Positions 91 to 53,565 of a stretch of 64,000 bases of DNA are shown here, piece by piece. Below the pieces are notes generated by a model that worked only from the letters and a program-made list of their open reading frames with translations, searched no databases and was not told the origin of the DNA. Every line of letters starts with the position of its first letter. Within the stretch, counting starts at the first letter, position 1. The position numbers were made by a program, and so were the translations under genes. The DNA is from a virus (lineage: Duplodnaviria; Caudoviricetes): IMG/VR virus record IMGVR_UViG_2799112742_000018, positions 1 through 64,000 of that record, one strand, 5' to 3'.

Positions 91-177
91 GGAAGGTTGG
101 GTGAGTGGCTGAAACCACCAGTTTGCTAAACTGACGTACGGGTTACCGTACCGGGGGTTCGAATCCCCCACCTTCCG
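91..177 (+). tRNA. tRNA-Ser(GCT), probable prophage integration site (attL)
   Basis: Acceptor GGAAGGT/ACCTTCC, anticodon arm CAGTTT-GCT-AAACTG, long variable arm GTACGG..CCGTAC, T arm GGGGG-TTCGAAT-CCCCC, discriminator G. Confidence 0.95.
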
Positions 178-178
178 C

Positions 179-2973: not shown

Positions 2974-5610
2974 TTAGTAACTGAAGCTGTCATACATATC
3001 CCCAGTATCTGAGGTGGTTACAATTTCAGCTTCGCCGTTGATGAACTTATTATATTCTTCATTGAGATAGTAGCATAGGGCATAGTCAAGACAGTCTGAA
3101 AGGTGTCCGTATTGTTCTGCCCTGACACCATTATCCATCAGCACTTTCTTTTTCTCCTTTGTGCCATCGGGATTTCTTTTTTGATATACAAGGTCAGCAG
3201 TCAGCTTACGGCAGTTAAGGTCAATCATTATTTTCCACCCATTATATCCGTTCAGTAGTTCATTAATAAAGTCGAGTCTTAGACCTTGCGATGGCTGGGT
3301 ATTGAATATCTGTAATGATGTCCTAAAGACAGGTTTCAATGTCTTTTCAATGATAGTAAAATTGTTAGTTCCCGCTTCGGTCTGTGTTGATCTTGCAGCG
3401 CCAGAAGGATCTCCTGTAATCAACACCCTGTCCATTTGATTCTTTCCTTTCAGATATTTTAGGATATATCTTGAGAATGCTGGAGTGTTGTTAAGACCGT
3501 CTTCTGGCTTACCTACAATTTCTTTGAAAATATATACTTCTTTTTTGTCGTAGTCTATTTGAATAGGCAATGCTGACATTTGAGGATTAATATTAAAGTC
3601 GATTGACAAGATAAGCGTTTTCATTGGATTGAAGTATTTATCAGTTAAACCGCATATAAGATGTTTTTCACCATCAAAAGCATGATATGCAGCCATTTTA
3701 TTAGAGTCGGTAAACTCCCAGTTTCCATAAAGAAGCCTATCTCTGGTGGCCTTGTCTCTAATTTTTCTTAGTCTATTAAAATAGATTATTCTGAATTGTT
3801 CGTTAGGATTGTCAAACAGACTGAAAGGCAAATACCTTAATCCTTTTGGCAATTTTACAGGATTTCCATCATCATCCATAACAAAGGTGCTACGAACCCA
3901 ATTCAAACATGGATTTGTGGACATGAGCATTTTTCCCACAATAAAGGATTCTGCTATTTTGTAACGAATACGAGATTGCAAAACTTCTATTGCTTTTTCT
4001 GATATTTCCGATACCTCATCGCAGAATGCTCCGCTAATCTCCAAACTTCCTAACCTATTGAAATCCAAGTCGTTAGGAGAGGGGGAGAGTTCTAATCCAA
4101 TAATTGTACTTCCATTCCAGAAAGTAAGAACAATGCGTTGATTGTTTATATGATAATTGACATCTTGTACCAATCCCCACTCATTAAGAATATTCAACAT
4201 GGTTGACCAAGTTGTAGCAATGAGGTTCTTTAACTCTTTTCTGGCAAGAACCATGCGGATTCCAGGATATTTTAGGCAGCTTGAGACAACCCAGGCACAA
4301 CCCAAATAAGAATTATGAGTAACTGTAAAATTATCAGCAACATACAATCCTGAAGGATCATCAACGGTGATACACCTTCCTATTTTTTTACCAATAGGTT
4401 CACAACTTATTATTCTTTTGCCAAGAATAGAAGCACCACCATTAAATTCATTTCTTGCATACTGTCTTTTGCGTTCCAGCCATACAATATCACGATTACA
4501 TTTAGTCATGATCCAGACATTATAAGCCAATTTGCCAGCTTTTTTATTTCCATTTCTATCCTTAAAATAAGGTTGTTTAGTTGTAATAGTTGCCTTCCCC
4601 CCTAAACTACGGACAACAAAGGCTACATCTTCTGCAAGTTGTTTGCTGACGGTGCAATAACTTATATGTCCACGATTATCAACGTAGCCATCAGTATCAA
4701 TAAGTCCCTGCAATAGCATCTTTCTATCTTCAATAGAAAAATACTTATATTGCTCTGGAATGAATTTTGTTTCTGCCTTATGGTTGCCTATCCCAGTTTG
4801 AGCTATTCTATTAATAAAGTCTTTATTGTAATACATGTATGATGAAGCTTGATTGCCCCCTTTGACACTTATACTTGAATAAGGACAATCAAGTTCTGCA
4901 ATTCGGTCAATAACTTCTTTATCTTTTGAAGTTATGGATGTTTTTTCCTGACTAAATAGTGACTCTGCTAAGCATCCATTACCAATTAATACCCCTAAAG
5001 TGTAAGGATGAATTGGTTTTGGGGCTTTTTGAAATTCTTTAGAAAATTCAACAGGCTCTGTCAATGGGATTATAAGATTTGATGGCTTAGGGTTGTTATG
5101 TAAATATTCGTATATTTGTTTTGCAGTCCAAATATTTTCCTTTGCACCACTTCTTGCTTTATGTAATCGCCATAAATGCTCTTCAGAACACTCAGAATAT
5201 GTTCTGTCAATAAATTCAATTCTATAATATTCACATTCTGTAATTGGATGTAAATAAATAATCTTTTGTTCTTTTCCTGTGTTTGGATTAGTAATGGTAT
5301 CACCTACTTTCAAATCTCTAACTGCGCAAAACCCATTGGGAGTACATACATGAGAATCTAATGACATCTGCTTTCCCCCGCCCGCAGAACCACCTGCTAA
5401 TATTAGTTCTGGTATGTCGGTATTACCACATTTCGCGCAAATAGGTTCGTGTATAGGGTGTCCTTCTTTGTCATAACCTGTAACTCTTAATTCAAGCGGG
5501 CCTCCACATTTATCACAAACACCCCCTTGTAATGCTTTCCAAACCTTGTACTGTTTTGGCGAAGGACTGAAGTTTATAACCAGTCCTCTTGGTTGTTCTA
5601 ATTTTTTCAT
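2974..5610 (-). CDS. terL: Terminase large subunit with N-terminal zinc ribbon and a LAGLIDADG intein
   Basis: Walker A GGSAGGGK|S split by intein, Walker B AFCDEVSE, MSTNP, nuclease IDFN, GDPSG, HLSDCLDY. Confidence 0.92.
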   Translation of the reverse strand: MKKLEQPRGLVINFSPSPKQYKVWKALQGGVCDKCGGPLELRVTGYDKEGHPIHEPICAKCGNTDIPELILAGGSAGGGKQMSLDSHVCTPNGFCAVRDLKVGDTITNPNTGKEQKIIYLHPITECEYYRIEFIDRTYSECSEEHLWRLHKARSGAKENIWTAKQIYEYLHNNPKPSNLIIPLTEPVEFSKEFQKAPKPIHPYTLGVLIGNGCLAESLFSQEKTSITSKDKEVIDRIAELDCPYSSISVKGGNQASSYMYYNKDFINRIAQTGIGNHKAETKFIPEQYKYFSIEDRKMLLQGLIDTDGYVDNRGHISYCTVSKQLAEDVAFVVRSLGGKATITTKQPYFKDRNGNKKAGKLAYNVWIMTKCNRDIVWLERKRQYARNEFNGGASILGKRIISCEPIGKKIGRCITVDDPSGLYVADNFTVTHNSYLGCAWVVSSCLKYPGIRMVLARKELKNLIATTWSTMLNILNEWGLVQDVNYHINNQRIVLTFWNGSTIIGLELSPSPNDLDFNRLGSLEISGAFCDEVSEISEKAIEVLQSRIRYKIAESFIVGKMLMSTNPCLNWVRSTFVMDDDGNPVKLPKGLRYLPFSLFDNPNEQFRIIYFNRLRKIRDKATRDRLLYGNWEFTDSNKMAAYHAFDGEKHLICGLTDKYFNPMKTLILSIDFNINPQMSALPIQIDYDKKEVYIFKEIVGKPEDGLNNTPAFSRYILKYLKGKNQMDRVLITGDPSGAARSTQTEAGTNNFTIIEKTLKPVFRTSLQIFNTQPSQGLRLDFINELLNGYNGWKIMIDLNCRKLTADLVYQKRNPDGTKEKKKVLMDNGVRAEQYGHLSDCLDYALCYYLNEEYNKFINGEAEIVTTSDTGDMYDSFSY
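4312..5370 (-). mobile_element. Class 3 intein (353 aa) with LAGLIDADG homing endonuclease
   Basis: Starts QMSLDSHVCTP after GGGK, ends VTHN|S; HLW (block B), CITV (block F), THN (block G); LGVLIGNG and LQGLIDTDG motifs. Confidence 0.88.
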
Positions 5611-5749
5611 AATTATTAATGATTTATGTTTTTCTTAGTAATAGTTTTCTCCCACCAGATTATCTGTACTTTATTATTATGTATTTTGTAAATATTTGAT
5701 AATTACATATTTACAAAATAATTATTTTTACTACTTTCTGCCTCTTAAA

Positions 5750-6155
5750 ACAAAAACCACCCTACTTTCGCAAGCAAGGTGGTGTCAAACTCTCAAAACA
5801 TGAATAAAAACAGAATCCGTTTTATAACGAAACGGTGAATTTATATATAATAGTGTCGTAACTCTTACATTCAGTGGGAATTTAAGTTAAAAAATAAAAA
5901 CCGACCTATCTTCACAGACCAGTCGGAAAGAGTCGTGATATATGTATAACTATAAACAGAATTTTCAAACAAAAACCTGTCCGACCTTCACAGGCAAGAC
6001 AGGGTGAAAGCGTGAATATAAATATATATAGACTACTTTTTGGAAAATAGTACGTGTTTTCTTAAAAACTGACCGATTCTCACGAACCAGTCAGGATAAA
6101 GTTTTATGTATTATCAAAATCGAGATTATCTTAATCAGCCCTCGCGGGTAGCTAA
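5750..6155 (-). ncRNA. Tandem cluster of 4-5 putative small RNAs, each ending in a GNRA-loop terminator
   Basis: Hairpins at 5756-5783, 5901-5926, 5976-6003, 6069-6094 (weaker 6131-6155), each with GUGA/GCGA loop and U tract on minus; CTATTAT promoter motif at 5847-5853. Confidence 0.55.
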
Positions 6156-6358
6156 GACGAAACGGAAAAGATTAATTCACTTTTGCCTTTACCTAAATCA
6201 ATGTTATATATTAAACCCTAAATCAAATTACCATTGTTTCATTAAACTTGGCAGACATCTCAAATTGAGTCATCCGCTTCCTTCTCAGCCTTCTTTCCTT
6301 AGCCTTTCTTATCTCCTGGATCTTACTGGCTAACTGATAGGCTATTCTGAAGTTGTCC

Positions 6359-6649
6359 TTATTTTTTATAATGCCCATTGTTCACTGCATTTATAAATGA
6401 ATCGTATGGACGGAACTTAGGGTATCTGCATTCCTGCTTAGAGTAGTTCTCTTCAGTCCTGAAGTTCCTTACTGACTTTGGTTTTCTTGTTACTGGGAAG
6501 AATTTTCCAAATCCTCTCAGATATACTGTATCACCTTCAATCACAGCCTGGGAAATCGTCTTCATGATGCTTTCAACAGCCGCAGAGACTGCAATCTTGG
6601 GCAATCCTGTTTCACCCATTATTCTCTCAATAATCTGATGTTTTGTCAT
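6359..6649 (-). CDS. hup: HU/IHF-family DNA-binding protein
   Basis: MTKHQIIERI..., VYLRGFGKF, RNFRT, PKFRP. Confidence 0.9.
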   Translation of the reverse strand: MTKHQIIERIMGETGLPKIAVSAAVESIMKTISQAVIEGDTVYLRGFGKFFPVTRKPKSVRNFRTEENYSKQECRYPKFRPYDSFINAVNNGHYKK

Positions 6650-6906
6650 TATCGTAAGCTATATTGGTTGTCTTTTAGGAAATTTACCACCTCTTCAGGC
6701 AGCTTATCAGACTTGTAATATTTCAGTGACTGCGTTACCGAGTCAAGCTTTCTTACTCTTGCACAGAAGATCTTGCGCTTACCCATAGTGGCCACACATG
6801 GAACCTTCTCTATGCTTTTAGGGTTTATTGTCCCAATCATATAGTATTGGGACTTTTCACATACGTAACCCTGTTTTACGATAGGTAGATTAACTTTTTC
6901 TTGCAT
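6649..6906 (-). CDS. Hypothetical protein
   Basis: ORF coupled to HU, preceded by CTATTAT motif at 6931-6937. Confidence 0.65.
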   Translation of the reverse strand: MQEKVNLPIVKQGYVCEKSQYYMIGTINPKSIEKVPCVATMGKRKIFCARVRKLDSVTQSLKYYKSDKLPEEVVNFLKDNQYSLR

Positions 6907-6974
6907 TGTTTTTAACTTATTACTTTTATGATAATAGTAACATTAACCCCTATTGTTAGTGGGATTTAGCGTTA

Positions 6975-7068
6975 AAAAAAATTAAGGGGATGTTTCACAA
7001 CACCCCCCTCAACCAAAACAATGAAAAAAATATGCGACTTATTAGACTAAATTACAAATTTATCTTTA
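6975..7068 (-). ncRNA. Putative ~90 nt small RNA
   Basis: CTATTAT motif at 7072-7078 upstream; GGGG-GTGTT-GTGA-AACA-TCCCC hairpin and U tract; no ORF. Confidence 0.5.
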
Positions 7069-7128
7069 TGAATAATAGATATTGCCAATGATTAGTTGGC
7101 TGATTTTTAGTTAAAAATGCTTAACACA

Positions 7129-7332
7129 TTAATAATTCCAATCTTCAATATCCCTTATATGGTTCTTTTCCTTCAGGTGATTTATTATGACTTCCAATAT
7201 AACGGCCATTGAACCCGAAGCAATAGCGATCATCCAGCTCTTTGCAAAAAGACTGAATACAAGCGTTATCAGACATACAAAGGAACATACTATCAGAGAC
7301 ATGATAGTCAGTTTTATCTTTACTCTTTTCAT
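7129..7332 (-). CDS. Small two-TM membrane protein
   Basis: Two hydrophobic segments. Confidence 0.6.
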   Translation of the reverse strand: MKRVKIKLTIMSLIVCSFVCLITLVFSLFAKSWMIAIASGSMAVILEVIINHLKEKNHIRDIEDWNY

Positions 7333-29349: not shown

Positions 29350-29933
29350 GGACACTCATAGTCTTGGCTGAGGCTTTATTTATCAGATCTTACCCTGGTG
29401 CATTGAAGGTTCCAGTGTATTTCACACTGGCCCCTTCCAATTGAGGAAACCAGGGGTGTGAATCCTATGACTCCTTGTGTCCGTTTACCATTCAGCTATG
29501 GCTCTGTATTGTCAGGTAGATTTAACTATATTTGATAGATTTAGACTGTATTATCCAGACTTAGAAGGATGTATTCACATACTCTTGAGTCTGGTATCAC
29601 ACAGTCTGTTAAACATATTGCTGACTCCATACGTTTTTGTATTGCTGGGTAGGCTTTTACTTTACTTACTTGATTTCATTGGATATTTCTCAGATGCTCA
29701 TCTCGTATTAATGAGATGAGCATCAGATTACAATATGTAATGAATAAATGCACCCAACTCCATACTAAAATGACTCTCAAAACATTGGCTAAAGCTTTAT
29801 CAATCAGATCTCTCCAGCTTACAAGATGACTTTCTTAGAGGCTGGCCTGCTCCGCGTCTTTGACGCGGGTGGCCGTCATCTGAAGAAGTCATATTTGAAG
29901 CGGGATTGTGAATGTCTTGTTTCTTGAGTCATT
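29350..29933 (-). ncRNA. RT-associated structured ncRNA array, proximal block (4 units: 29769-29933, 29639-29765, 29506-29632, 29350-29482)
   Basis: Terminal stems, long variable hairpins (e.g. perfect 12 bp GATGCTCATCTC/GAGATGAGCATC at 29693-29724), shared ARATCW-N6-TAWAG. Confidence 0.8.
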
Positions 29934-34812: not shown

Positions 34813-36076
34813 CAATTAACAACTACAACTAAATGACCTTTCTTGTCCCGAATAAGCGCTCATATAACTCAGCACTCTTTTCAAGTGCAAGCGCTTTCAA
34901 CTCCCTCAGATGTTCCTCACTCATGCGCTGTTCCTCACGCTCATGACGAGCCTTAAAACGTGCAGCATACCAATTCTTGCCTCTAAATGGGCGCTTAGGC
35001 TGCTCTGGTGAAGCGCTCATTACGCGCTCCACCATACGACAGCTATGCTTACTTGTGTGGTACTCCACCTCAACAAGGCGGTGTCCTTCGATTATCAATT
35101 CTTTTCTCATGGCTTATTTCTTTATCAGGTTCTCACGTTCTGTCTTCAGTGCCATAAGGCGGTCATTTAGTATGTCGAATACCACTCCCTTGTCAGCACC
35201 CATCATCTCCTTGAGGACAATGATGATTTTCTCATTCAGCTTTTCAGCCTCCTCATTTGTCTTCTCCACTGCCATTGGTACAGGATGGATAGCTACTGGG
35301 ATTGTGTCAGGACATACACCGCCCTTGATAAGATTGTTTGATTTTGACTCAGCATTAGCGCTCATGCTAACAAGTGCAACCATTGTTGCGAGAATAAGTT
35401 TCTTCATAATTGTTTGTTTTTGATTAATTAATTGATTGATTTGAAATTATCCCTCAGAAATTAGTTGAGGGTGTGTAAAAGAATGCACTCAGAACCAATA
35501 CAGCCACGAATATGACTGCGATTACCAGTGTCTCATAGTCGTTTCTGTCCATAGCTCAGTTCTTGTAGAAATACTGACCTTGAGTAGTTGTACAACCACC
35601 ACTCCAGCCTTGTTTGCTGTATATCTCACGCATAGGGTTCTTGAAACCCTTGATGAACACTAATTTGCTACTTATTTTACGTACTCCCATGATTTAGTCC
35701 TCCTTAATTTTGATGTTTAGTTCCTTGCAAATCTGTGCTTTTATGTCTTTGTTCAAATACTGGCGGTAAAACTTATTGTTCTTGCTCAGCTTGCATACAT
35801 AACACGCTCCAGACTTCTTATTTACGATAATAGGATAGGAATTACCCCTTGAGTCCTCGTACTTGTACTGAGTAACCAATGTGTCACGCACATAGGTCTT
35901 CCTCTCAGCCTTAAATACGTTTCCACTCCTTGAAACACTCTGGGCACTCATGCTACATACTGCTAACAAAAGTGCGAAAATGATATATAATTTTTTCATC
36001 GTTTTGCTCAGTTTTGATATAAAATGAGTGACCTACTCTCACGAGCAAGTCACCCCGAATAACAATTCTATGTTGC

Positions 36077-40101: not shown

Positions 40102-41106
40102 ATAGTTTAGGGTAACTTTTTTCAAAAAAAATTTTATATGAATGATTTTTCTTTATAAAGCATATAGGAATAGCGTGTACGCGCGAGGGTAACTAATTGA
40201 AAATAAGTGAGTTATAAGAAAATGAAAATTTTTTGCATTTTGATTGATTTTGATAGCGAAATTTTTGGAGAAAAAGCCGTTTTTGATAGTGAGTGAAGAC
40301 GATTTTGATACTTGATTTTTGTAGTTTGTGAAAATTGAGGTAGAAATAAGGGTTTTTAATATCAAAAACGATCAAAATAGGAAAAGAAAAGTTGAGGTAT
40401 GAAAACGAGATAACACACATATAAGCATAGCTTATTAAAGGGTATTTAAGGAAATAGAGGACAAAATTGATATTTTAGGGTATAGTGAAAAGCACTAAAA
40501 GCACCGAAAGACTAAAAAGTGGAAAAATAGAACAAAAGATACAGAAAAATAGAAAAGTTTCACTTATTGCAAAAGTGAAACAAGACAAGACTAAAAACCT
40601 TAATAGAATATACTGAGAGGCACATTTAACCAAAAAAAGAGGGGAGGGTGTCCCCGAAAACTGGAAGGGCACACGTAAAATTTTCCAAATTTTCAAGTCC
40701 CATTTTTCTAACCCCATCCGCACCCATCCTCACTTATAGAACCCCTCAAAAACCCACATTTTCACCATTTTTCACCCATCCGCACCTGACCACACACGCC
40801 CGATTCCCTATAAATTAGCCTCTCTGTGACGTTTTCTCGTCCTAACCCTTACAACCTCCCACCTCACCCTTAAAAAACGCCTCAAAACGCCTAATTTTTA
40901 AGCCTTTCATTTTTAGTCAATTATTAAGAAACGTTCCCGAAGGGAACAGGCACGAAGTGCATTACCAAATAAACCCCATAAAACCACCTTATTTTCCCCA
41001 AAAATCTTTTCCGAATTATAAAAAACCTTAAAAAACACACCCCAAAAATTTTTTCGGCCTCATTTTCAAGTCCGATTTTCCTATTATTTATCGGTAATAC
41101 TCATAA

Positions 41107-41199
41107 GCCAGCCCCATCCCAGACTGATGACCTAATGGTACGGTGATACATATATAGCGATGTAGGTTCGAGTCCTTCCTTTCTGGGATCGGGACTGGC
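41107..41199 (+). ncRNA. tRNA-like structured RNA (pseudo-tRNA)
   Basis: D-loop-like ACCTAATGGTACGGT, T arm AGG-TTCGAGT-CCT, extended closing stem ATCCCAGA/TCTGGGAT and GCCAG/CTGGC; no proper anticodon arm. Confidence 0.55.
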
Positions 41200-41522
41200 A
41201 ATAAGAGACAATTCTTTCTTTACAACTCCATATTCAATCAGTGCGCTGCTCACTCACATACTGATACCCAAGCTTTATGAGAGAAACGTAAGGGCGCACT
41301 TTTCTTTTCGACATTATGCAAAAAAGACTTATAATATCAATACTCTTCATTCCAGCCATTCTTATAACAATATGCTGGGAATTTCTCAGTTTCCTGTCAT
41401 ACCCGATTATAGCATGGATATACTGGATAAGAACAGGCAAGACAGATATAAGCCACATCTTCGACAAGATAGTACGTATCCCAATAGACACCTGGAAATC
41501 AATCTTATAAAACAACAATAAT

Positions 41523-46565: not shown

Positions 46566-47456
46566 ATGAAGACAAAAGAACAAATAATAAGGCAGATAAA
46601 GCTATATAAGTTTACGGATGAGGAATGGCAGAAAGTCTATGCTTTTTGTAGGGATAACTATGGTACAGGCTTCAACAAACCTTTCAGGGGTAAATATGAA
46701 TGTGACTATCTCAAATTCATGGACTGGATGGATAATGGCTTTGGTTCTGGGGATCTCGTAAGGTGTGGCGATGATAGTGCCGCCATCATATCCTATGTCA
46801 TTGATGATAACGTGTACTATTGTGCGTATTTCGATATGGACGATAATCTTATAATCATGGAGGATAAACTATATAAGGCAAGGAATTTCAGTAGAGAATT
46901 GTTACCTGAGAATGAAGCCCATAAATTCTACGACATCATCAACCAGGCTGGGTATCGCATCTCGGTTATCAATGGGGTGATTTGCAAGAAATCACCTCTT
47001 AGGATAGGCGAGGCAAGGTTCTTCAGCTATCAGGGAAAATCCTTGTATGGAGTAGTTAAGGGTTATGATGATAATGGTGCTGTGTTTGGTTTCGGATATT
47101 CTGATGATACATTCATAAATAAGGAAATCAAGGTGCCAATGGAAGATGTGCATGATATTGTGAGTAGTACTGCGGAAGATAAGATGGATGAAGAGATAGC
47201 TGCCAAGTATCATGTAAGATGGCATCAGGCATTGAAGCGGCTATGCTATCTTTCTGCAAGAGCGCCTAAAGGTGGAAGGTACTATTATCTTACCGACAAA
47301 TTTACTTTTGCCGTTACAAAGGAGAATTACAGCAAAGTGTCGGATATGAGATATGAAATGGGGAACTATTTCAATTCATGGGAGGATATTACGGCATTTT
47401 TCATGAAGCTGAAGGCACTGAGAAGCGACATGATAGACAAGGGGGAAATAAAATAG
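46566..47456 (+). CDS. Hypothetical protein
   Basis: Likely start MKTKEQ at 46566 downstream of TATTTTTG promoter box (46542-46549). Confidence 0.7.
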   Translation: MKTKEQIIRQIKLYKFTDEEWQKVYAFCRDNYGTGFNKPFRGKYECDYLKFMDWMDNGFGSGDLVRCGDDSAAIISYVIDDNVYYCAYFDMDDNLIIMEDKLYKARNFSRELLPENEAHKFYDIINQAGYRISVINGVICKKSPLRIGEARFFSYQGKSLYGVVKGYDDNGAVFGFGYSDDTFINKEIKVPMEDVHDIVSSTAEDKMDEEIAAKYHVRWHQALKRLCYLSARAPKGGRYYYLTDKFTFAVTKENYSKVSDMRYEMGNYFNSWEDITAFFMKLKALRSDMIDKGEIK

Positions 47457-47518
47457 GTAGGACTATCATCACTGACGATCCTACCCTACACAGTTAATTA
47501 ATGAAATTAAAACTAAAT

Positions 47519-50112: not shown

Positions 50113-50328
50113 ACTCCTTTAGTTTTAATTTCGGTTGCAAAGATAATATGTTTTTTCTTAACCTCCAAATAATTTGTTGAATAAATAGGTTAAGAAAAGT
50201 TAATCAATACATAAAAGCTTCTTTCTGAATAAATTAAAGTATGTGCGTACATTATACATAATAAGAAAAAGCGCAGCTTATTCACATAAACTACGCTTCA
50301 CAATGAAGAAAAATGTACTTGCTGTATA

Positions 50329-52296: not shown

Positions 52297-53565
52297 ATGA
52301 AAAAGAGAAATTCAGTAGAATCGGGAGGTCAGTACTTTACAAGCAATGACCTTGTATCATACTACAACGAGACCAAGAAGACCATTCAGGACTACGTTGA
52401 TGAAATAAGAAGGCATTGTGGATACAAGACAGTCGTATCTCAAACTGCCGATGGAACTATCCTTGATGATCGAGGAAGACTGATGGATCTTTATGATTCA
52501 TGTCTCATGCAGGATGCACATCTCAGGTCTTGTATGGAAACATTGTATTCATACATTACTGGTGAAAGATATGCTCTCGGCACTATTGACGAAAGGGGTG
52601 AATTTGTCATTGATGTTGAAGAAACAAAGAAAGTACAGACACTTGATTTTGAGAAATTCATAATCGGTATTCAGGATGCTACGGCATACGGATATACATT
52701 GTTCGATATTTCCTCAAAAAGAAACCCCGCTACTGGACTTCCAGATTATATAGGTACGGTTGAGCGCCGTAATGTTCTTCCAAGTCAGAGACGAGTAGTC
52801 AAGACACAGGGACAATGGATGCCTGGTTGGGATCTTGATAGTGAGAGATATAAACACAACTATATCCTTATTGATACTTGTGGACTCGGTATGTTTGCCA
52901 CCAGTACACCTCTTGTATTGGCTAAGAAATATACCGTTTCAAACTGGGTAAATTTCAGCCATACATACGGACAGCCTATCATTCATGGCAAGACAACCGC
53001 AACCGATAATGAGAGTAGAAAGAGATTGGCGCAGAGTATTGTAAATGCAGCCCAGAATAAGGTTGTTGTTACTGGTACTGATGATGCTATTGACATCAAG
53101 ACATTTACAATGTCAAACTCTGAGAAAATATTCCAGAGCCTTATTGAGAATTATGCTAATGCCGAGATTTCAAACCTTATTCTTGGCTCTGAGTCTATGG
53201 CTGGCGCTACCCAGTCTTATGTGGGATCAACTAAGGCGCATGAGGATATTCTTAGGAGTAGAGTACGTAGGTATCGCCGTTTTATTGAGCAGACTATCAA
53301 TGAAAGAATACTTCCAGAATTGGTTTACTGGGGTTTCATCAAGCCTGGCCTTGTATTCAAGTATTCTAAGCAGCTTGATATGTCTGTTGAGGCAAAAACC
53401 GAGGTATTCAAAATGCTTACCGCAGCTTATGATGTGCCAAAGGAAACTATCAGAAATGAGTTTGGCGTTGAGGTAGGAGAGCAGATGAACCATAAGCAGC
53501 AGTTGGTAAGTAAAACCACTGGTAACGCAAATGCAAGGGTAAATTTTCTGAGGGGAAAGCAATAG
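52297..53565 (+). CDS. Portal protein (DUF935 / Mu gp29-like)
   Basis: DLYDSCLMQDAHL, YGYTL, W..F...YGQP, NAEISNLILG, first gene of head module. Confidence 0.85.
   Translation: MKKRNSVESGGQYFTSNDLVSYYNETKKTIQDYVDEIRRHCGYKTVVSQTADGTILDDRGRLMDLYDSCLMQDAHLRSCMETLYSYITGERYALGTIDERGEFVIDVEETKKVQTLDFEKFIIGIQDATAYGYTLFDISSKRNPATGLPDYIGTVERRNVLPSQRRVVKTQGQWMPGWDLDSERYKHNYILIDTCGLGMFATSTPLVLAKKYTVSNWVNFSHTYGQPIIHGKTTATDNESRKRLAQSIVNAAQNKVVVTGTDDAIDIKTFTMSNSEKIFQSLIENYANAEISNLILGSESMAGATQSYVGSTKAHEDILRSRVRRYRRFIEQTINERILPELVYWGFIKPGLVFKYSKQLDMSVEAKTEVFKMLTAAYDVPKETIRNEFGVEVGEQMNHKQQLVSKTTGNANARVNFLRGKQ

Follow-up and report, generated by a model that had tools for sequence, protein, structure and literature searches.

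The window analysed here covers the initial 64 kb of a provirus record of 114,064 bp, and the elements in question are a cluster of minus-strand hairpins with GNRA loops between an operon encoding an HU-family DNA-binding protein and the gene for the large terminase (terL). Nearly all genes from 1.7 to 52 kb lie on the minus strand. The upstream operon (6223-6906, minus strand) starts with an 85-aa protein, p85 (6649-6906), followed by the HU-family protein (6359-6649; PHROG 379 DNA-binding protein, E = 1e-19, with Pfam Bac_DNA_binding in the gene tables of relatives) and p51, a 51-aa open reading frame (ORF; 6223-6378). Downstream, terL (2974-5610, minus strand) contains an intein and matches the PHROG terminase families as well as Hom_end, LAGLIDADG_3, and Terminase_3. 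An earlier note, made from the sequence alone, had read these hairpins and four single ones elsewhere as antisense small RNA (sRNA) genes, in part stacked in an array. We find that reading unsupported as a whole, given that only two of the units are complete and only one of these shows signs of excess pairing with gene starts, and consider it probable that the region is a hotspot at which composite terminator/promoter cassettes are shuffled.

A tRNA-Ser gene is located at window positions 91-178 (an Rfam match, and the sole Rfam family at threshold in the window). Because the last 14 nt of this gene, cccccaccttccgc (165-178), recur near the right end of the record at 112,841-112,854, the element is taken to be a prophage of ~112.7 kb integrated in tRNA-Ser of a rumen-type Prevotellaceae bacterium. 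Two further copies resembling the tRNA 3' end follow at ~112,925-113,090 of the record. The flanking host gene is 95-97% identical to genes in uncultured rumen-type Prevotellaceae/Bacteroidales metagenome-assembled genomes. The portal protein is of the Mu type, and the phage is integrated and temperate.

All nine hairpins described in the earlier note were found on the minus strand: five in the cluster, which we assign to units E (7009-6984), D (6094-6069), A (6005-5974), B (5926-5901), and C (5783-5756), and four single ones (1682-1657, 36055-36026, 47486-47455, and 50301-50266). Each has a 4-nt GUGA or GCGA loop, 11-16 pairs, and a T tract on the minus strand. Predicted folding energies, all better than those of shuffled sequences, are -25.1 kcal/mol for C (z -2.8), -21.4 for E (z -3.7), -17.1 for A (z -3.7), -13.0 for B (z -2.1), and -35.0 for the D region (z -2.1). 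The tetraloop seen most often in intergenic terminator-like hairpins of the phage is GTGA (eight cases), with GCGA, GCAA, and GTAA also represented; three relatives have GTGA as well, and in 390 kb of the closest host genome it forms the loop of just 2 of 84 such hairpins. Hairpins B, D, and 36055 are mutually 80-83% identical (80% for D and B, 83% for D and 36055). The proposal of a related family therefore holds, in the sense of a phage-typical set with a loop preference above chance.

The positions of the four single hairpins identify them as ordinary operon terminators rather than sRNA genes. They occur 65 nt past the stop codon of a 176-aa gene (1657-1682), 22 nt past a stop codon and before the gene for a secreted 101-aa protein at 35999-35694 (36026-36055), 33 nt past a stop codon (47455-47486), and about 30 nt past a stop codon (50266-50301), all on the minus strand, and no promoter of their own was found for any of them. 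Most intergenic terminator-like hairpins elsewhere in the genome likewise lie 3-70 nt past a stop codon, and the T tracts are always on the transcribed strand. In natural variants pairing is kept despite sequence change: the E terminator shows two compensatory pairs in relative L261, and the changes in the arms of A are mostly to wobble pairs. Structure, operon-end position, and kept pairing all fit Rho-independent terminators, and we predict that this is what the hairpins are, in a style typical of the lineage, with stems rich in GC, GNRA loops that are mostly GUGA, and U tails.

The second recurring element is the CTATTAT sequence, which the earlier note had placed ~70 nt upstream of two of the hairpins with no ORF in between. 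Both copies were found (5853-5847 and 7078-7072), and the intervals between them and hairpins C and E hold no ORF beyond 9-12 codons on either strand. CTATTAT is the core of a genome-wide, 15-nt phage motif with the consensus CTATTATTAAGAAAA. The window has seven copies of the form CTATTAYTA where 1.8 would be expected, a count that none of the shuffles attained. With a position weight matrix (PWM) of the motif, 26 matches scoring 14 bits or more are found across the record, mostly 6-70 nt upstream of a co-oriented ATG. The motif precedes, among others, the HU operon, terL, the genes for a DUF2586 protein and the Mu-type portal, and many genes of the virion region. At the locus itself, the copy before terL, CTATTACTAAGAAAA (5630-5644, minus strand; PWM 17.8), lies 19 nt before the ATG at 5610, and that of the p85-HU-p51 operon, CTATTATCATAAAAG (6923-6937, minus strand), lies 45 nt after the E terminator. 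Judged by its position, the motif is probably a phage-specific promoter, mostly of virion and packaging operons. Moreover, it is often linked to terminators: 8 of the 24 strong copies have a same-strand terminator at most 110 nt upstream, and a terminator-like hairpin followed by a CTATTA-type motif precedes terL in 12 of 13 relatives with 55-63% TerL identity.

The promoter consensus of the host, TTTG..TAnnTTTG, is absent from the region and present in few other places in the record. A 216-aa ORF at 100,389-101,039 of the record (L268:1405-2055) has a match to Sigma70_r2 of 16.8-18.6 bits, below the cut-off of 24, and is a candidate sigma factor for the CTATTATTAAGAAAA motif, to be taken as a lead only. 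Another copy of CTATTAT, at 41081, has downstream of it, at ~41080-41210 of the window, a tRNA-like T-arm on the plus strand, GGTTCGAGTCC, which neither ARAGORN nor Rfam calls; a second copy of the motif at 40918 lies in the same 516-nt ORF-free gap.

In the order in which the minus strand would be read, the first unit of the region is E. It begins with the promoter-like motif CTATTATTCATAAAG (7064-7078, minus strand; PWM 22.2, among the best copies), which is conserved in close relatives apart from two variable positions. Its body (6974-7063, minus strand) is predicted to form a weak 5' hairpin, then an unpaired stretch with the sequence U7-CAU-UGUUUUGG (7034-7013), the terminator stem-loop (7010-6984) with its GUGA loop at 6998-6995, and a U tract at 6981-6974. 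The loop is mostly GUGA, GCAA, or GCGA in natural variants, and CAAUU in L261. Beyond the HU operon, unit D (6064-6222, minus strand) consists of the 130-nt 3' trailer of that operon and a GUGA terminator, and the motif is absent between the stop codon and the hairpin. Hairpin D, counted among the sRNA genes in the earlier note, thus terminates the p85-HU-p51 operon, ~130 nt past the p51 stop codon.

Units A (5971-6045) and B (5895-5970), both on the minus strand, are orphan terminators, each preceded by a decayed motif that matches at 8 of 15 positions (CTATATATATTTATA in A); in variants of A it is the 3' arm that carries mostly wobble changes. The TCACG found after the motif in C is present in both A and B. 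A sigma-ABfr promoter of the host type (TTTG..TAnnTTTG) was considered for the two units and rejected, none being present within normal spacing, and with motif matches of this quality neither unit qualifies as an sRNA gene. The terminator of B leads into a repeated cassette (5847-5894, minus strand) made up of the terminator tail, a spacer, TTTTTTAAC..TAAAT.CCCACT, and the start of the motif, CTATTAT. This cassette is paralogous to 6979-6931: the two sequences, which follow the B and E terminators, are 71% identical over 49 nt, and the distance from terminator to motif is similar, 45 nt from E to the motif at 6937 and 46-48 nt from B to that at 5853.

Unit C then begins with the motif CTATTATATATAAAT (5839-5853, minus strand; PWM 15.4). 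Its body (5746-5838, minus strand) comprises a 5' hairpin (5835-5817), an unpaired stretch of 33 nt (5816-5784) with CAU at 5802-5800, the GCGA terminator (5783-5756), and a U tract. The 12-mer ATGTTTTGAGAG of this unit recurs in the same orientation at 29774-29785 (minus strand), in a repeat unit beside a reverse transcriptase gene, probably by chance. Between the C terminator and the terL motif is a 39-bp imperfect palindrome, TTTGTAAATAT..ATATTTACAAA (5682-5720), which is 87% self-complementary and looks like an operator or other protein-binding site. The predicted complete, ORF-free promoter-to-terminator units are only E (7078-6974) and C (5853-5746), which would probably be transcribed as short RNAs of ~85-90 nt if the motif is a promoter. 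The layout of own promoter, no ORF, and terminator that the earlier note had ascribed to the family is therefore found in these two, in terms of sequence, and not in A, B, D, or the four single hairpins.

We compared the region with 13 further contigs containing either the exact HU protein or a close p85 homologue. Three are identical to the window, and others differ from it by whole modules. Unit C is present in the window, L016, L017, L019, L020, L024, L262, and L263 and absent from L018, L023, and L261. In L019, L024, and L262, unit C is followed by an HNH (NUMOD4) gene, a 93-aa gene, and a terL without intein; the trailer of D is deleted in L263; and the terL intein is variably present among these contigs. 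Where C is missing, the B terminator runs straight into the tail, spacer, and motif that in L019 come after the C terminator. The junctions of the gain or loss of unit C and of the HNH insertion fall in the repeat of terminator tail, spacer, and promoter. Since the sequences after the B and E terminators are alike, and since B can be joined to the tail, spacer, and motif that otherwise follow C, the units are bounded by a repeated cassette, and it is at such cassettes that whole units are gained or lost. Unit E is conserved in every relative found, and a search of Joint Genome Institute metagenomes with unit E as anchor added one further near-identical copy only.

A distant relative, G004, has an array of its own (39.55-39.95 kb; the last 450 bases of L032), with three GUGA terminators within ~260 nt and an upstream hairpin. 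This array contains two CTATTAT motifs and no convincing ORF and lies on the strand opposite to its neighbouring genes. Public phage records showed no similarity to window 5500-7200, TerL relatives were not found among GTDB genomes, and viral contigs yielded neither HU relatives nor an exact match to part of unit C.

Two other features of the terL region vary among relatives. The intein (Hom_end/LAGLIDADG) is found in the terL of the window, L016-L018, and L020, and L019 and L024 have an intein-less terL (426 aa; L019:4909-6189) with the gene for a homing-type HNH/NUMOD4 endonuclease just upstream, so that two different selfish elements occur at terL. In many relatives (L018:4240-4380 and L019:3720-3868, and L008 and L011 upstream of terL) the copy of the motif that precedes terL or the HNH gene has the sequence CTATTATTG-AGTGTAGGATAGAAC...CCCTTCCTAC. 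Its ends could pair (GTAGGA.AG with CT.TCCTAC), which would give a conserved structured 5' leader of ~90-130 nt; the leader of the window is plain, and the 39-bp palindrome is absent from the relatives carrying the structured leader instead.

Taken together, these comparisons make it probable that the hairpins cluster before terL because composite terminator/promoter cassettes are shuffled at this hotspot. A GUGA terminator is often linked, via a short spacer, to the CTATTATTAAGAAAA motif, and the stretch from the HU operon to terL would be a hyperplastic junction of such composite modules. Each module would stop transcription arriving from upstream and then restart it, so that the HU operon and terL would be kept as separately controlled units with their promoters shielded from read-through. 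The likeness of the modules would allow recombination to add, delete, or swap whole units, leaving behind the orphan terminators A and B and the two ORF-free promoter-to-terminator units E and C. Four terminators in ~350 bp, which the earlier note had found hard to explain by termination alone, would need no sRNAs under such a scheme: module shuffling explains them, and close relatives differ by whole modules at exactly this place. We regard the E and C RNAs mainly as by-products, or empty slots, of the cassette architecture and not as a dedicated family of anti-start sRNAs.

Several points weigh against this interpretation. The motifs of E and C are intact and score highly, both terminators are strong, and E is kept in all relatives found, which is more than would be expected of a mere scar. 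The E stretch, moreover, is significantly complementary to start regions in several tests (see below). The 11-mer ATGTTTTGAGA is common to unit C and one G004 unit, in both downstream of CTATTAT and upstream of the hairpin; by our own estimate such a match has a chance expectation of ~0.5 in the sequence searched, and its position makes it suggestive, no more. The cassette repeats are few, only ~70% identical, and free of long identical patches, so that it is from the positions of the junctions that we infer recombination and its mechanism. Finally, direct observation extends to the hairpin structures, the distribution of the motif, the modules gained or lost, and the negative pairing tests of eight hairpins out of nine; promoter and termination activity are a further step.

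The earlier note had proposed that the hairpins belong to antisense RNAs that pair with translation starts. We tested the 25 nt 5' of each of the nine hairpins for contiguous pairing, with G-U pairs allowed, against composition-matched shuffles. The targets were 282 host start regions, taken from a 390-kb sample of the closest host genome, and 160 of the phage. In counts of long matches, eight of the nine stretches did no better than the shuffles, and only E exceeded them. The earlier note had itself named seeds that match host starts no better than shuffled controls as the result that would tell against its proposal, and this is what eight of its nine seeds gave. Its observation that start-codon-like reverse complements stand 5' of the hairpins is correct, and in its loose form not specific: CAT occurs at most 30 nt upstream of eight of these nine hairpins and of 14 of the 17 other terminators of the genome, that is, of 22 of 26 terminator-like hairpins in the whole record, against a background of 0.32-0.39. 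Several of these instances are stop contexts of the form ..CA/TAA or ..CA/TAG, and we discarded CAT upstream of a hairpin as a signal. The longer word TTCAT is found in five of the nine against 1 of the 17 (composition-matched shuffle P = 0.0008), with a P value inflated by the post hoc choice of the word. TTCAT is also present in the U tails of the G004 terminators and after hairpin 1682.

Unit C, the second complete unit, shows little of the expected behaviour. Against phage starts its best energy is unremarkable (P 0.31), and its mean energy is nominally better (P 0.02), by ~1 kcal/mol and for a longer stretch. Its closest match across three host genomes contains 3 mismatches over 20 positions. 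In natural variants its CAU is replaced by AAG (L262), and GAGAGUUUG is changed to GAAAAUCUG (L263); a natural variant without CAU speaks against the claim that C is antisense to start codons. A change in the 5' hairpin of C in L262, from C-G to U-A, appeared compensatory by eye, but RNAalifold chose another register with no compensatory pair, and it was not counted.

Unit E is different. In each of the two closest host genomes, a 20-mer from its complement agrees at all but one position with the start of a gene beginning MKKVATS (19 of 20); the predicted duplex has 20-21 bp and -25.2 kcal/mol, and the single mismatch is a G-U wobble. The gene, which starts at 53261 of G007:C1, encodes a large secreted protein, MKKVATSLLLMLIAIGSWAQ.... 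The best match in the phage itself is the start of the gene at 35999, for the secreted 101-aa protein, with which E pairs over 16 bp. With E, 20 of the 282 host starts form 13 or more contiguous pairs, against 3.6-5.7 in shuffles; a count this high has P = 0.018 in full shuffles, was reached by 0 of 500 shuffles with CAT held fixed, and by 0 of 1,766 natural intergenic 25-mers. The complementarity of the seeds to A-rich AUG starts is thus unusual for the E stretch and not for the other stretches. Depending on the test and on whether host or phage starts are used, P ranges from 0.004 to 0.09 for E, values that are nominal and not robust to multiple testing.

These findings bear on the possibility that unit E, and less likely C, encodes a trans-acting sRNA in which U7-CAU-UGUUUUGG would pair across A-rich starts of the AUGAAAAAA type in host or phage signal-peptide genes and block ribosome loading. 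We consider this unlikely, even though it is the best of the alternatives. The layout of E is the canonical one, an ORF-free unit that runs from a promoter-like motif through an unpaired stretch to an intrinsic terminator, and in its favour are also the host MKKVATS duplex, the pairing with phage gene 35999, and the excess of host starts with at least 13 pairs. Moreover, the 9-codon micro-ORF on the opposite strand is frameshifted in variants, which indicates that the conserved strand is the RNA strand, and there is a precedent for the targeting of start regions in GibS (PMC7366714).

On the other hand, the host sample was picked to include the contig with the E match, nine stretches were tested, and, scaled to a whole genome, the best duplex of E has P ~0.04. 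High complementarity of E to some gene is to be expected, since its reverse complement is a very common gene start: of 80 exact matches to a 16-mer of the E stretch in viral contigs, 47 begin, as the reverse complement, ORFs of at least 60 aa, and only one (in L217) is followed by a hairpin and T tract. The stretch is also no better conserved than the rest of the unit, having indels in its U run while the 5' part of the unit is unchanged, and in L263 it reads CAUUUG and UUUUAG, out of register with the host site. For C, an excess of contiguous pairing is absent, the shift in mean energy against phage starts is small, and the CAU is lost in L262. A covariance model of E gave four weak matches in 151 Prevotellaceae genomes, of which the best two are tRNA trailers and not homologues of E, and nothing in 5550-7200 reached an Rfam gathering threshold (the best match being BTnc231, with 17.9 bits against a cut-off of 80.4 and E = 0.96). 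Two Prevotellaceae genomes (L264:1501-1581 and L265:1501-1586, minus strand) have in common the conserved element AATAATACTAACCATAAGTTTGATTTTTGTTTTGG and, after it, a GNRA-loop terminator, ~110 nt downstream of a tRNA gene; the element may represent either a small RNA of the host or a conserved trailer of the tRNA.

A more specific form of this proposal, which we hold to be distinctly doubtful, is that E is a generic anti-start sRNA of the phage, antisense to the A-rich AUGAAAAAA starts of secreted protein and lipoprotein genes in Prevotellaceae. Expressed from a late-type promoter, E would damp the mRNAs of envelope proteins, including that of the large secreted host protein and that of the phage's own secreted 101-aa protein, and unit C would encode a paralogue of this RNA directed at other targets.

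Less plausible, and in our view quite improbable, is that E and C are promoter-proximal attenuators, with a polymerase modified by an antiterminator reading through the series of terminators into the HU operon and terL, in the manner of lambda PR'-tR' with Q. A late-type promoter is followed by a strong terminator within ~90 nt twice, each time before an operon, and a terminator series before terL would make read-through depend on a processive factor. However, an intact motif lies between each of these terminators and the next gene (6937 before p85 and 5644 before terL), so that read-through is unneeded, and unit C is dispensable in natural relatives. By reading, we saw no sequence able to pair with an arm of the E terminator as an alternative structure, and a NusG-like gene was not found in the prophage; the Q and N families were not searched for.

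It is very improbable that the repeats act as DNA, as sites for the terminase, the HU-like protein, or a recombinase (a pac/cos-like or recombination site), with their hairpin potential incidental. Their location directly upstream of terL and beside an HU-family gene would suit such a role, as would the 39-bp palindrome at 5720-5682. However, the compensatory and wobble changes in the stems keep structure over sequence, the T tracts are always on the transcribed strand, hairpins of the same type end ordinary operons elsewhere, and units are gained and lost among otherwise near-identical phages. We exclude the suggestion that the start-like sequences begin plus-strand micropeptides (MKKICDLLD at 7021 and MNKNRIRFITKR at 5800): both have A-rich contexts in the Bacteroidota style, but natural variants have single-base indels that throw both out of frame after a few codons, a plus-strand promoter motif was not found upstream, and the ORFs oppose all neighbouring genes.

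Among described systems, the favoured interpretation, that of shuffled terminator/promoter cassettes, brings the region closest to the promoter-early stem-loops (PeSLs) of T4-type phages, composite promoter and stem-loop motifs in hyperplastic regions between which recombination produces insertions and deletions (Arbiol et al. 2010; Comeau et al. 2014; PMC2839356, PMC4122927). In both cases a small terminator stem-loop is combined with a promoter motif and repeated in a hyperplastic region with small orphan genes, and close relatives are set apart by modules that have been inserted, deleted, or replaced, the junctions lying in the motifs. The differences are that PeSL promoters are sigma-70-like and early, whereas here a phage-specific 15-nt motif precedes virion and packaging genes; that PeSL stems are poly-G/poly-C, whereas these have GNRA loops; and that PeSLs belong to T4-type myoviruses, whereas this is a temperate Prevotellaceae prophage with a Mu-type portal. 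In addition, the copies here are few and ~70% alike, and neither mini-circles nor recombination were observed. We therefore describe the region as PeSL-like and not as a member of the PeSL family, from which both promoter class and phage type set it apart.

The closest counterpart of E and C as candidate RNAs is GibS, an intergenic sRNA of Bacteroides thetaiotaomicron that acts by pairing across start codons (Ryan et al. 2020, PMC7366714). With GibS and other sRNAs of that species, E and C share a presumed start site, the absence of an ORF, an AT-rich unpaired stretch, and an intrinsic terminator, and the E stretch, like GibS, would pair across start codons. Unlike those sRNAs, to which they have no sequence or Rfam relationship, E and C are phage-encoded, would be driven by a phage motif, and are candidates only. 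DicF and IpeX are base-pairing sRNAs of enterobacterial prophages and depend on Hfq. They too are short non-coding prophage units, which repress host mRNAs at or near the start region, but they belong to another phylum and are not built into terminator/promoter cassettes. In lambda, the late promoter PR' is closely followed by the terminator tR', yielding the 6S transcript, and Q acts by antitermination. The likeness there is a short terminated RNA upstream of late genes; the difference is that here a second copy of the promoter motif follows each terminator and that the unit is dispensable in relatives.

If unit E does encode an sRNA, it would open the study of phage riboregulation in a phylum without Hfq and without initiation led by Shine-Dalgarno sequences, and, if the generic anti-start proposal is true, it would be the first sRNA acting by base pairing to be reported for a phage of Bacteroidota. 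If the region is instead a site of cassette shuffling, as we think probable, modular shuffling based on such cassettes would not be confined to T4-type phages and would extend to large temperate phages of gut and rumen Bacteroidota. The combination of a 15-nt promoter-like motif and GUGA-loop terminators would then provide a transcription map of the lineage, which may aid the annotation of operons and of slots for accessory genes in uncultured Prevotellaceae prophages.

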